64,000 bases of DNA from Omnitrophica bacterium GWA2_41_15 (GCA_919901915.1 CAKKQB010000013.1:64192-128191); one strand, 5' to 3'. Positions 1 through 64,000 are shown, counted from the stretch's first letter. Made by a program: numbers and translations. The notes: generated by a model not told the origin, from the sequence alone.

Positions 1-1933
1 CTTTCGCTTTTTCTCTTATCTGCTTGTTCCAGAAAAATCTTTTTTTGCTTAAAAGAGTTAGGTAAGGAGAGGCCTCTTTGAAACAAACTTCTTCTATAAG
101 AGACATGTTCTCTAAAAGCGCGTTATTTTCCTTAACAGAAAAAAGCAATTCAACCGCCTCTTTTCTTGCCCCCTCACTTTTAGACAAAGCTTCTAACGCC
201 TGCCTCTTCAACAAAGGTGTACCTTTCTCTAAGGAAAGAATCGTAAATTTTTCATCAATCGCGCTTAATTTCTGCATCGCCTTCAATACTTCTATCTTTA
301 TAAACTCATTAGAAAACGAAAAAATATTCTTAAGCGCTTCTATGGCCAAGGCCAAATCAACTGTTTTCAAGCCATCTATAATCCCTAGCATAAATCCTAC
401 ATCAGTATTCTTTTTCTCTAAATTCCCATAAAAAATGTCCTTATGCCCGGGAAAAAACTTAAAAAATAATTTCAAGGCATAAGCGCTAACCTTACCTTCA
501 TTAAATATTTTATCCAGATAAAATTCAACCCCCATAGAGGATTTTTCCAGGGTATCCGCGAAATACTCCAAGTCAGAAGACAGTGGTTCGGCCTCCCCTT
601 GCCGAAGCCGCAAGTCAGAGGACAGTGGTTCGGCCGGCTCCCAAAACAGATTTTCTATTATTTTTGTAACGCGCGTATCCAAGACATCAAGAAAACGGCT
701 TAAATACGGTTTTTGTTTTCTTCCGTCTTTCAAAGCGCCACACAGATATTTAAGATATTGATAATCCTTTACCTTAACTATCTCGGGGAGCTCTTGAGAA
801 ATTTTTTCTATAATCTGCTCGGCCTTTTCAGAGTTTTCCTCTTGCGCGAACATACTCAACAAAATCAAACGGTAATTTTTTTGCAAAATTCCACGGTCAA
901 AAGAAAAAGCTCCCCCGGAAGAAATATCATTAAGCATAGCGCTAATCCTGCCGCGATAAACCTCTGAATCAAGAGAGGCATTGGGTTGGGCCAATAATTC
1001 CTGTATCTTTTTTATTGCTTTAGGATTCTGTTTTAAAGAATCTTTATTGAATGAATCTGTTAAAAAAAGTGAAGCGATGCCCTCCTGCATTTTTTCATCC
1101 GTGAAACGGGAAAATAACTCCAAACTTAAATTATCAAAATTTTCATCTTTTAATATTCCGCTCCAAAGCGCTCCCGCGAAGTCCTCTTCGCTCAAATGTC
1201 TAAAGAATACCTTAATTTTATCTATATTTTCTCCCCCTAAAACATCTTTATGCCTTAAAACTGACCTGAACATCGCGCTAATACAGGTTCTAAATCTTTC
1301 CTGATCATGTTTTTTAAGATAATCTAAAAAGGCCGTCACGCTCTGCCTTAGCTCTTCGTCATTAAGTAAATCATCCGCCTTAAACCTTAGAGCTATCTTT
1401 TCAAAATTATCCGCGAACACGCTTACCTTCTCTGAATCGCCCGAGCCTATTGCCTGAGCGACTAAATATTCCCATACATCCCTAATTTCTTCTCCCTCAT
1501 CTTTTAAAAATTGCGAATAATCCAACTCTTCAATAGATACATGCGCGATATTCTCCTTTTTTAGAATGCCCCCAAGGCCGCCTTGTTTAAAAACTTCTCG
1601 AACAGGTAAAGCTAAGCCGGCAAGAAAATATCTCAATTCCTCAACCGTAGCGCCTTGTTCTATCTGAATACTTCTCAATTTACGACGGTGAAAAATCATG
1701 GCTAATTCAACGCAAAACCCCATTTTCTGCCAATACCTTGAGTCCAAAAACAAAGAATTGGGAGTAACGCCTATTTTTATCGGGTTTAAAAAACCAAACA
1801 CCAAATCAGCGTTTTTTTTAAATTTTTCCACGGAATCTATAAAATAGGGGTGTGTTCCAGAATAAGAGGAGGCATTGTTTATAGCTATACGCAGGCTTTT
1901 AAGAAAATCATTTAAGACTTCTTCTTTATTCAT
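1..1933 (-). CDS. hypothetical protein, partial (C-terminus lies beyond window start); helical HEAT-like repeats in distal part
   Basis: Absent from ORF track because no stop falls in the window. Manual translation from ATG 1933..1931 (MNKEEVLNDFLKSLRIAINNASSYSGTHPYFIDSVEKF...) stays open for 644 codons to base 2. Only short low-complexity + ORFs oppose it. Confidence 0.6.
   Translation of the reverse strand, partial: MNKEEVLNDFLKSLRIAINNASSYSGTHPYFIDSVEKFKKNADLVFGFLNPIKIGVTPNSLFLDSRYWQKMGFCVELAMIFHRRKLRSIQIEQGATVEELRYFLAGLALPVREVFKQGGLGGILKKENIAHVSIEELDYSQFLKDEGEEIRDVWEYLVAQAIGSGDSEKVSVFADNFEKIALRFKADDLLNDEELRQSVTAFLDYLKKHDQERFRTCISAMFRSVLRHKDVLGGENIDKIKVFFRHLSEEDFAGALWSGILKDENFDNLSLELFSRFTDEKMQEGIASLFLTDSFNKDSLKQNPKAIKKIQELLAQPNASLDSEVYRGRISAMLNDISSGGAFSFDRGILQKNYRLILLSMFAQEENSEKAEQIIEKISQELPEIVKVKDYQYLKYLCGALKDGRKQKPYLSRFLDVLDTRVTKIIENLFWEPAEPLSSDLRLRQGEAEPLSSDLEYFADTLEKSSMGVEFYLDKIFNEGKVSAYALKLFFKFFPGHKDIFYGNLEKKNTDVGFMLGIIDGLKTVDLALAIEALKNIFSFSNEFIKIEVLKAMQKLSAIDEKFTILSLEKGTPLLKRQALEALSKSEGARKEAVELLFSVKENNALLENMSLIEEVCFKEASPYLTLLSKKRFFWNKQIREKAK
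570..635. repeat. intragenic palindromic element (E-type), two half-sites AAGTCAGARGACAGTGGTTCGGCC flanking TTGCCGAAGCCGC
   Basis: Direct 24-nt repeat at 570-593 and 612-635, in frame (AEPLSSDL twice). Its reverse complement closely matches 9768-9810, and the same modules recur more loosely at 35597-35658. Confidence 0.8.
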
Positions 1934-2066
1934 CGTACATTAGCAACTTGAACCCGGATTTTGCAATAGAAACGACATTCGCCGGCAAATCGGTTTCGGC
2001 TATAGGAAGCCGAACCATAGCCTTGTGGCTAAAAGAGCGCATCTTCATCATTTTAACAGGAACCGG

Positions 2067-2109
2067 AATAAGTGTAGAAACGAGGCACTGCCTCGTCTCT
2101 ACACTTATT
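2067..2109. repeat. GC-rich palindromic hairpin (GTAGAGACG type)
   Basis: aataagtgtagaaacgaggca / c / tgcctcgtctctacacttatt, 21-nt arms with 1 mismatch. Related cores at 10019-10046 and 22869-22897. Confidence 0.8.
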
Positions 2110-2145
2110 TCTGGCGCACCCTTCACATTATTTACAAAAGAACCA

Positions 2146-2376
2146 TTATTTTTGGGCTTTAATTTTCTCGATATTTATATCTTTACCTCTTAAATACTCA
2201 AAGGCCTTAGCTACTTCCTCTTCATCTCCCTCTAAGCCAAGTATAGCCCAACCGGAATACATAGAGAATGACGCCTCAAATATATTCAAGTTAATATTAA
2301 AACTTTTACACAAATAACAAATTATAGACTCATCCTTTAAATTGCCGGGAAAGGTTAACCCAATCAATACTTTCAT
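2146..2376 (-). CDS. small NIL/ACT-like domain protein
   Basis: 76 aa. The pattern LTFPGNLKDESIICYLCKSFNINLNIFEASF...GWAILGLEGDEEEV resembles NIL-domain proteins. RBS GGAG lies in gattacggagatttttagATG. Confidence 0.5.
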   Translation of the reverse strand: MKVLIGLTFPGNLKDESIICYLCKSFNINLNIFEASFSMYSGWAILGLEGDEEEVAKAFEYLRGKDINIEKIKAQK

Positions 2377-62290: not shown

Positions 62291-62307
62291 TTTACCCCTC
62301 CCATTTT

Positions 62308-62379
62308 TCGTATTACGTGATGCGTGACGCGTATCGCGTTAAAATTTTCGCAATACGCACAACGCACGACGCAATACGA
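62308..62379. repeat. D-type heptamer hairpin (CGTNNNN units)
   Basis: tcgtatta cgtgatg cgtgacg cgtatcg cg-ttaaaatttt-cg caatacg cacaacg cacgacg caatacga. The arms are only partly complementary. Confidence 0.65.
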
Positions 62380-62380
62380 A

Positions 62381-64000
62381 TTACCTCCACATCTTCTTAT
62401 ACTGATAATACGACTTCCTCAACTGCCTTAAAAAAGGGCTTACCTTCCCATCCCCTTGGCCGCAAATACCTAGCCACTCCTCATGCATAAAACCATCGGG
62501 AAACGGCCCGGTCCATAAACCCTTTGTATCATGCATTGAAGGCTCGTACGCTTTCCACCATTCATCTAACCACTCAAAAACAACCCCGCCTATGGAATTA
62601 CCATCTCCCGCGCAAAATGCCGAATTCTTAAGTATGTCATCCCATGTAGCGCTGTGATATTGAGCCTGCAAATTCTCGGCTTCATCAGAAGTTTTTCCTT
62701 CAGCATAAGCAGGACAGCCATACTCTGTAATAAACACCGGCTTATCCGCCTCTTCTTTTACCTGACGCCAAATTTGGCCAAAACCGTAATTGCCTCGATA
62801 AGCATTAGTGCCAAAAATATCTATATCCGGGGCATCTTTGCCAAACTTATCTAAAAACAAAACGTCACCGCTGCATATAGCTACCGGGTGTTCAGGGTCA
62901 ATGGATTTAATACGTATAGCTACCTCATTAGCAAATTTAAAAAAAGCATCCGGCTCCTTATCCGCGTTGCAAGCATAACCATAAACATTTTCATTACCCA
63001 AAAGCCAGAAAAGCACAAATGGCTCATCTTTAAATTCCATAACCATATCCGTTACGGATTTCATCATATTTTTCTTATGTTCCTGATTATTATAATCTGT
63101 TCCGGGATTCCAGGACGCGCCTGAACCAATGGCATACTTACCTAAAAAGTCCCCCATAATCACCCTAATACCGTATTTATCATAAAGTTCACGCAGAAGT
63201 TCCTTATCTATTTTTTGCGGATGATGATACAGCCTTATAGTATTTACACCCATCTCCTTCATTAACTTAAAATCTCCCACTGCCGGCTCATTCTTATCCC
63301 AAAGATTATTTTTATTTTTATCCACAAAACTATCATATGGGCCGTCAGGCTTGCCATTACCATTAAAATCCTCATTCATCCAATTTCCCATCGTACCTTC
63401 ATCCGGAGATTGACCAACTTTCGTAGGCGCGTAAGTTACACCACGGATTTGGTAAGGTTTTTTATCCACGAATAGTTCCCAGTCACCGGTTTCATATTGG
63501 ATAAGATTGACCTTACCACTGCCTAACCTCTTTTTTATACTTAACAGGCTTTTATCCGGCTTAAACCTTAATTTTTCTAAAATATTTATCTTAACAAATT
63601 TTCCCGGATTAGCAATTACCACATCGTTAGAAACATCGTTATCGAAACCATTTTCTATCCTTACGTAAGCGTCGGCAAGCTTGTAACCTAACTGGGGATT
63701 CTGCCGCAAGAGAAAATTTATCTTAGAAATAGCGGCTTGCGCCAAATACCATGGCGTATGCCAATAAGTCCAGCCGTAACTTCCCGGAAAATGCACTAAA
63801 ATAGCGTAGTAACATTTTATCGCTTGTTTTACCAACCCGGACTTTTCCAACATCAACGCGGTATAAAATAATTTTACGCCTGTCGGCTCAGGCGCGGTTT
63901 GCCATTTTAAAAATGCCGCTTCTAAATCCGGCGAATGCATAAAATCCCAATGCGAACCCAAAAGCCTTTTTTGCTCCTTTGCCTTCTTAAATTCGGGGTC
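62381..64000 (-). CDS. clan GH-A glycoside hydrolase, paralogue 2, partial (N-terminus beyond window end)
   Basis: Has IRGVTYAP, GVNTIRLY, WLLGNENVY and VFITEYGCP. The frame stays open from the TTG at 63961 to base 64000 (DPEFKKAKEQKRL...), so the true start is probably outside the window. Confidence 0.75.
   Translation of the reverse strand, partial: DPEFKKAKEQKRLLGSHWDFMHSPDLEAAFLKWQTAPEPTGVKLFYTALMLEKSGLVKQAIKCYYAILVHFPGSYGWTYWHTPWYLAQAAISKINFLLRQNPQLGYKLADAYVRIENGFDNDVSNDVVIANPGKFVKINILEKLRFKPDKSLLSIKKRLGSGKVNLIQYETGDWELFVDKKPYQIRGVTYAPTKVGQSPDEGTMGNWMNEDFNGNGKPDGPYDSFVDKNKNNLWDKNEPAVGDFKLMKEMGVNTIRLYHHPQKIDKELLRELYDKYGIRVIMGDFLGKYAIGSGASWNPGTDYNNQEHKKNMMKSVTDMVMEFKDEPFVLFWLLGNENVYGYACNADKEPDAFFKFANEVAIRIKSIDPEHPVAICSGDVLFLDKFGKDAPDIDIFGTNAYRGNYGFGQIWRQVKEEADKPVFITEYGCPAYAEGKTSDEAENLQAQYHSATWDDILKNSAFCAGDGNSIGGVVFEWLDEWWKAYEPSMHDTKGLWTGPFPDGFMHEEWLGICGQGDGKVSPFLRQLRKSYYQYKKMWR

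Follow-up and report, generated by a model that had tools for sequence, protein, structure and literature searches.

In Bacillota (e.g., Bacillus and Clostridia), about 75-87% of the genes are located on the leading strand. Here we describe gene orientation and strand composition in a stretch of 64,000 nt from Omnitrophica bacterium GWA2_41_15 (GCA_919901915.1, CAKKQB010000013.1:64192-128191), which was analyzed at its full length and is called the window below. The whole window is very probably part of a single replichore in the chromosome of a Candidatus Omnitrophota bacterium, with the minus strand as the leading strand and its 52 genes co-directional with replication. A comparative study in 2024 stated that no phylum other than Bacillota shows high strand bias with almost universal conservation (PMC11237797). 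According to the same study, the PolC-type polymerase has historically been associated with high strand bias without being a strict requirement; it is not sufficient, and is perhaps necessary (PMC11237797). Omnitrophota are unmentioned in that study and in a 2024 strand-bias study in Nucleic Acids Research, and strand bias is not discussed in two large surveys of Omnitrophota genomes. However, three curated complete Omnitrophota genomes have been reported with near-total strand bias on each replichore (West-Roberts et al. 2023, preprint on giant genes; bioRxiv 10.1101/2023.11.21.568195).

The window belongs to the same phylum as the genomes of West-Roberts et al. and behaves like a segment of such a replichore, whereas it represents a different lineage (best MnmG identity to GTDB species representatives 75%), covered here as a 77-kb fragment. 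Thus, near-total strand bias is already on record for the phylum, and the window is one more instance, real but expected. The window resembles Bacillota genomes in its long co-oriented runs, its strong positive GC skew on the leading strand and its transcription co-directional with replication. It differs from them in that the gene content is of diderm type (lpxB, and an RND pump that has an outer-membrane factor), that the local bias, at about 95%, reaches or exceeds the range of Bacillota, and that synonymous sites of the leading strand are rich in both G and T. The third described system is a terminus-proximal region of Gemmatimonadota (PMC11237797), where conserved core genes likewise share one orientation over a long block, outside Bacillota. 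The bias in Gemmatimonadota is confined to this one region, whereas the evidence from Omnitrophota points to whole replichores.

All 51 protein genes and the one tRNA gene of the window are on the minus strand. Open reading frames (ORFs) of at least 100 aa were surveyed, and a Pfam match was taken as support for a gene. Every Pfam-matched ORF of this size is on the minus strand, including the two that are truncated at either end of the window (2-1939 and 62384-64000), and independent gene calls on the source contig contain no opposite-strand gene in the parts of the window that they cover. The sole tRNA gene, tRNA-Met (CAT) at 6692-6768 on the minus strand, was found by ARAGORN and by Rfam (RF00005, 64.9 bits); an Rfam scan of the window at gathering thresholds found nothing else, and no rRNA. 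The original prediction had claimed that all confident genes and the tRNA are on the minus strand, that this holds across pilus, biosynthetic, efflux, toxin-antitoxin and glycan loci, and that mnmG is present. ORFs, Pfam, the independent gene calls and ARAGORN all agree with the first claim, and the Pfam annotation is as varied as the second one says. The mnmG (gidA) gene, which encodes a tRNA uridine-5-carboxymethylaminomethyl modification enzyme, is located at 49872-51773 on the minus strand, with matches to Pfam GIDA (E = 1.5e-161) and to both C-terminal domains.

Outside the minus-strand genes, the plus strand has just two ORFs that reach 100 aa, at 22848-23213 and 51839-52252, and both were rejected as genes. 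The former (121 aa) lies in a 960-bp spacer after the efflux operon, has no Pfam match and is not called on the contig; its skews at the three codon positions (-0.13, -0.32 and -0.29) are unlike those of true genes of either strand. The latter (137 aa) lies in the spacer upstream of mnmG and also has neither a Pfam match nor a call on the contig. Furthermore, 173 nt of it (51992-52164) are 94% identical to the spacer at 8025-8197, a dispersed non-coding repeat, and contain the REP-like hairpin that is also present at 6189, 29336 and 56159. The ORF has no similarity to the transposase gene that is found at the same spot in relatives. The G excess at first codon positions, typical of true genes on both strands here, is missing from both ORFs.

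The run of co-oriented genes extends beyond the window. The source contig is ENA ERZ1292638 NODE_67 (95,164 bp), and the window is the reverse complement of its record positions 5407-69406. The contig sequence covered was the window plus its flanks, 77 kb in total, with record positions 77006-95164 outside this coverage. The window is identical to the overlapping contig stretches apart from position 6235, which is C (plus strand) in the window and T in the ENA contig and falls in a spacer, with the genes for the response regulator and the histidine kinase on either side. The run starts where the contig does and extends over 72.9 kb with 61 genes; when spacers longer than 100 bp are counted as unit boundaries, these genes form at least 23 transcription units. 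It is broken by two genes on the opposite strand, lpxB and a gene for a Gfo/Idh/MocA oxidoreductase, about 3.5 kb beyond window position 1 (17625-19722 of locus L002; contig record 72917-75014), and the majority orientation resumes at an ABC transporter. A check of gene orientation and skew, which the original prediction had proposed for the whole contig or genome, gave 61 of 63 genes on one strand and a skew of one sign in 76 of 77 one-kb bins on the 77 kb of contig. High strand bias, in the sense of more than about 85-90% of the genes on one strand over tens of kb and many transcription units, is present here.

Strand composition was analyzed on the same sequence. GC skew of the plus strand is negative in 32/32 two-kb bins of the window (mean -0.19), and the cumulative skew is monotonic. 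Over the 77-kb stretch, GC skew of the coding strand is positive in 76/77 one-kb bins (mean 0.188). Read on their own coding strand, the co-oriented genes have a GC skew at third codon positions (GC3 skew) of +0.225 and a corresponding AT3 skew of -0.19, and the values are -0.27 and +0.13 for lpxB and -0.34 and +0.13 for the oxidoreductase gene beside it. When these two genes are read on the DNA strand, the sign of their skew is the same as that of their neighbors. Spacers have a GC skew of +0.143 on the majority strand. That is, G exceeds C at synonymous and non-coding sites regardless of gene orientation. The skew tracks the DNA strand and not the coding strand, which is the signature of replication-associated mutational asymmetry with a G- and T-rich leading strand. 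Therefore, the minus strand of the window is assigned as the leading strand, and the genes as co-directional with replication. A rough split attributes about 0.13 of the skew to replication and about 0.06 to coding, as estimated from only two lagging-strand genes; a G excess of +0.39 at first codon positions adds to the total. As a general rule in bacteria, the G-rich strand is the leading strand. From this rule and the composition, replication forks would pass from high to low window coordinates.

A comparison with related genomes gave the same picture. MnmG was compared with GTDB species representatives, and 71 loci were found with a best identity of 75%. The matches at 61-75% identity are nearly all labelled as metagenome-assembled genomes of Candidatus Omnitrophota; a minority of the matches go under other names, e.g., uncultured Planctomycetales, and the four matches under other phylum names have at most 52% identity. 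The gene order around mnmG is conserved in the relatives: genes for a ROK protein, a 287-aa protein, a LacI regulator, ribonucleotide reductase and phosphoglycerate mutase, then mnmG, then genes for a Fer4_16 protein, NAD synthase (nadE), an AsnC regulator, an aminotransferase and a GAF-ANTAR regulator. The order from the ROK gene through the 287-aa protein, LacI, ribonucleotide reductase, phosphoglycerate mutase and mnmG to Fer4_16 is common to 41-55 of 67 loci. The immediate neighbors in the window, a cofactor-independent phosphoglycerate mutase gene upstream of mnmG and the Fer4_16 and NAD synthase genes downstream, are the same in 51-55 of the 67 Omnitrophota loci. The closest relatives and the shared gene order place the organism in Candidatus Omnitrophota.

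Of the 882 ORFs that reach 120 aa in the 67 Omnitrophota loci, 840 (95%) are oriented as mnmG, and the net GC skew is positive on the mnmG-coding strand in all related loci of at least 8 kb. Among the opposed ORFs of relatives, 35 of 42 retain the sign of the DNA strand at third positions. Because synteny inflates counts of co-orientation, ORFs without a homologue in the window were counted apart: 288 of 330 (87%) are co-oriented with mnmG, and of their families, 78 are found only co-oriented, 21 only opposed and one in both orientations. Assignment of the leading strand in relatives by the sign of the mean GC3 skew was tried and abandoned, as six loci with G+C of at least 0.48 and near-zero GC3 skew were mis-assigned and gave a misleading 87%. 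Orientation with respect to mnmG, combined with net GC skew, was used instead. In addition to mnmG, LpxB was used for a second neighborhood and matched 17 loci at 57-66% identity in metagenome contigs of the Joint Genome Institute. These loci typically show the pattern '--------PP--------', in which lpxB and its partner are the two-gene island (PP) and are located on the C-rich strand. About 94% of the ORFs outside the lpxB island are on the majority strand, and the majority strand is the G-rich strand by net GC skew in 17/17 loci. Long conserved gene order around both mnmG and lpxB is consistent with few inversions. In summary, the reading of the original prediction, that such co-orientation reflects a strongly strand-biased genome, is borne out by the replication-linked skew, by the run beyond the window, by relatives with 87-95% co-orientation, and by the literature.

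Two kinds of lagging-strand genes were observed in these comparisons. The island of lpxB and the oxidoreductase gene is conserved in most of the 17 related loci (L079-L107). A gene for a divergent Y1 transposase of about 160 aa (IS200-like/RAYT-type; Pfam Y1_Tnp, 9e-17) is found directly upstream of mnmG in 13 relatives (L008 at 9386-9871, L013, L014, L017, L020, L024, L026, L033, L038, L044, L046, L063 and L068), and a fourteenth locus (L049 at 9237-9896) has a weaker match, with 28-42% identity over part of the length. This transposase gene is one of the few recurrent lagging-strand genes in relatives. It has no counterpart upstream of mnmG in the window, where the spot holds repeat copies only.

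These results lead to a model for the whole stretch. Forks would pass from the high- to the low-coordinate end, and the 52 genes would be transcribed in the same direction. The origin would be located past the high-coordinate end of the window, and the terminus past the opposite end. Genes would be kept on the leading strand by selection against head-on replication-transcription collisions, as inferred from established work, a low rate of inversions within the replichore would help to maintain the arrangement, and strand-specific mutation would then build up the strong excess of G and T. Several points weigh against this interpretation. The evidence from this organism itself is 77 kb of one contig, so that genome-wide bias and the second replichore are outside its view. 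The related loci are strongly syntenic and are not independent samples, and in relatives of higher G+C the GC3 skew alone is too weak to assign the leading strand. In addition, the decomposition of the skew on this contig hangs on two lagging-strand genes with 693 codons, and the direction of replication is deduced from composition and is not a direct observation.

Other explanations have to be weighed against location within a single strongly biased replichore. A chance run in an ordinary genome with 55-65% strand bias has nothing positive to support it. At a bias of 55-60%, the probability of the run is about 1e-14 to 1e-16 if 61 genes are counted and about 1e-6 to 1e-5 if 23 units are counted, compared with 0.04 and 0.3, respectively, at a bias of 95%. 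Because the run would be so improbable in a weakly biased genome, chance is practically ruled out; the very strong and uniform skew and the same pattern in relatives also speak against it, and we give it hardly any weight. A more serious alternative, yet an unlikely one, is that the window is a local island of high bias in an otherwise weakly biased chromosome, like the terminus-proximal region of Gemmatimonadota. The coverage of this genome is limited to 77 kb, such islands exist in other phyla (PMC11237797), and both neighborhoods compared in relatives are conserved core regions, which are typical places for them. However, the two neighborhoods, mnmG and lpxB, are unrelated and show the same bias in dozens of Omnitrophota genomes, ORFs that are not conserved are still 87% co-oriented there, and complete Omnitrophota genomes have been reported as biased over whole replichores.

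Co-orientation and skew might also come from transcription or coding constraints, or from a single insert such as a prophage, an integrative element or a giant operon. Coding strands are generally purine-rich, and the first-position G excess of +0.39 does feed the total skew. On the other hand, third-position and spacer skews keep the sign of the DNA strand in the two opposed genes, as do 35 of the 42 opposed ORFs of relatives. As for an insert, the genes are of housekeeping type, belong to heterogeneous functions and are separated by numerous spacers. Genes for an integrase, a phage or conjugation were not found, and the gene order is vertically shared across Omnitrophota. This explanation is highly improbable. 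Slightly less so, yet still very unlikely, is that the window is close to the replication origin, flagged by mnmG, and that oriC is divergent or unrecognizable. In many bacteria, mnmG is located close to oriC, and the original prediction had mentioned it as a possible marker of the origin while finding no cluster of DnaA boxes. The absence of a cluster was confirmed. With at most one mismatch, the DnaA-box TTATCCACA has 29 matches in the window, about twice the 15.5 expected from shuffled sequences, but these are dispersed, mostly inside genes, with never more than two within 150 bp, and 22 of the 29 are on the plus strand. Therefore, the excess was rejected as an origin signal and is regarded as an effect of skewed oligomer composition. 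The suggestion about mnmG did not hold up. There is no skew inflection over 77 kb, and dnaA, dnaN, rsmG and parAB are not among the Pfam-annotated genes of the window and the contig flanks. A tblastn search with E. coli DnaA, a somewhat weaker line of evidence, had no match in the 77-kb stretch, nor in any of the 71 related loci up to 10 kb from mnmG, and in one relative with a 1.19-Mb contig, mnmG is about 430-450 kb from one contig end. Compared with the canonical oriC neighborhood (rnpA-yidC-mnmE-mnmG-rsmG-parAB-dnaA-dnaN), the window shares mnmG only and is without the other genes, a DnaA-box cluster and a skew switch. On the evidence at hand, mnmG here is not origin-proximal. Under the preferred reading of an internal segment of a replichore, the origin must be farther than 5.4 kb from the window on its high-coordinate side, 5.4 kb being the length of contig that remains there. 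The strand-skewed oligomer similar to TTATCCACA could serve as a marker of replichore polarity.

The genes of this run cover diverse functions, and all those described below are on the minus strand. A cluster for a type IV pilus or a system like type II secretion occupies 2402-17331, according to Pfam and gene calls, and includes a PilB ATPase, a kinase with PAS, histidine-kinase and PilZ domains, a response regulator, a PilM-like protein, prepilin-like proteins, two pilins and a PilC platform protein. A Pfam-identified gene for a MazF toxin (14123-14455) is embedded in it. The two pilin genes, of 134 aa each in the contig's gene calls, are identical and in tandem (14714-15598), as a 464-bp unit present 1.9 times at 100% identity, which might be explained by recent duplication, by gene conversion or by the assembly. 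Tandem decamers TTTATCCGTG (ACACGGATAA on the coding strand) are found in 2-4 copies at 8207-8255, 13984-14046, 14687-14758 and 15175-15222, just past the stop codons of the PilM-like and pilin genes and just before a TPR gene. In the pilus cluster, these decamers may function as a motif for regulation or be associated with terminators. Nucleotide biosynthesis genes follow at 17279-21525, identified by Pfam as the N-terminal half of carB, carA and purF. The carB ORF (17279-18958, 559 aa) overlaps the start of pilC and has preATP-grasp, ATP-grasp and oligomerization domains. Since only the N-terminal half of carbamoyl-phosphate synthetase is encoded, carB is split and its second half must lie elsewhere. 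The true start of carB may be the ATG at 18916, right after a heptamer hairpin described below.

Next to these genes are a toxin-antitoxin-like pair of DUF433 and DUF5615 (21899-22552; Pfam DUF5615 7.7e-23, with DUF433 on the adjacent called gene) and, from Pfam, a MarR regulator with an RND efflux operon of an outer-membrane factor, a membrane-fusion protein and an AcrB-type pump (23514-29117). A nitrogen-assimilation block, also assigned by Pfam, extends over 29467-47642. It contains a gene for a glutamate-synthase-domain protein, pyrG, gltD, gltB, and genes for a type III glutamine synthetase and an ammonium transporter (amt), as well as a second gltD-like gene and genes for a DHODB-type Fe-S/NAD protein, a GAF-ANTAR regulator and an aminotransferase. 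The nadE gene is near mnmG. From 52354 to 64000, Pfam and the contig flank identify phosphoglycerate mutase, a class II-type ribonucleotide reductase, and LacI and ROK regulators, together with three proteins that match nothing significantly in Pfam and a GH2-like TIM-barrel glycosidase, which is truncated at the end of the window.

Repeats are prominent in the spacers. Tandem arrays of the heptanucleotides AGCGTAG, AGCGTAT and AGCGGAT are followed by their complement, and such inverted pairs form long hairpins. The arrays are located at 18913-19049, 20098-20140, 39382-39562, 41800-41819, 44641-44754, 47637-47732 and 53634-53709, and a second heptamer family is found at 61000-61100 and 48228-48288. 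The predicted folding energies of the hairpins are -19 to -52 kcal/mol. Against shuffled sequences, the weakest hairpin has z = -2.7 and the others have z scores from -3.4 to -5.6; the second family at 61000-61100 has z = -9.2. The hairpins follow a stop codon and precede the next ATG, leaving 5-10 nt ahead of the start codon, and an obvious Shine-Dalgarno motif is absent. Full hairpins precede the starts of carB (downstream of carA), gltB, the gltD-like gene, and the aminotransferase and phosphoglycerate mutase genes, and carA is preceded by one array arm only (20098-20140), which does not fold by itself. Furthermore, a heptamer hairpin of 130 nt (-50.5 kcal/mol) was observed in frame inside gltB (34743-39386), at 37899-38027. 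Its translation includes LSADSVERIADRKSKTLYALRSTLYANKSYPLSANK and is part of the linker that joins the amidotransferase domain to the central domain. The linker has 38 residues compared with 12 in the B. subtilis GltA structure 7mfm, and about 26 extra residues compared with solved GltB structures. The in-frame hairpin is reminiscent of the in-frame palindromic elements of Rickettsia. Another heptamer repeat is found inside the DHODB-like gene (44993-45035).

The exact heptamer unit of the window is absent from all related loci. Period 7 clearly dominates among the tandem repeats of the 67 related loci and accounts for 54 arrays, compared with 22 for period 6 and 9 for period 8. In relatives, the period-7 arrays are often paired in inverted orientation and have units specific to the species; several are located immediately upstream of the mnmG match. 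In cyanobacteria, heptamer repeats are known as short tandemly repeated repetitive (STRR) sequences. An intergenic heptamer repeat, TAACTGA, has also been described in Beggiatoaceae (PMC4679880). In the literature, we found no description of heptamer repeats in Omnitrophota. Because the hairpins precede starts, because relatives have arrays near mnmG and because an in-frame copy is tolerated in gltB, one might propose that near-total co-orientation goes together with transcripts punctuated by species-specific heptamer hairpins before starts, which would act as signals for processing, insulation or control of translation; this proposal is conceivable, though rather doubtful. Two other repeats are dispersed in spacers. 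The REP-like hairpin GTCATTCCGGCGAAAGCCGGAATCCAG is found in five of them (6189-6219, 8045-8075, 29285-29365, 52012-52042 and 56159-56218), and a repeat of about 180 nt is present as 182 nt at 8020-8201 and at 51987-52168, the copies being 93-94% identical. When translated, the REP-like and 182-nt repeats yield spurious ORFs such as the one at 51839-52252.

Alone, the finding matters little, as the window is an internal piece of a replichore and gives an annotator the direction of replication. Together, the window, about 85 related loci and the three complete genomes indicate bias at or above the level of Bacillota in a diderm phylum. We found no polymerase gene in the 77 kb of covered contig sequence, and nothing on PolC in Omnitrophota in the literature as judged from titles and abstracts. 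With such a bias, Omnitrophota are a useful test case for hypotheses on PolC, inversion rate and collision avoidance. If Omnitrophota are also without PolC, they would offer an independent test in nature of the factors by which extreme gene-strand bias is maintained.

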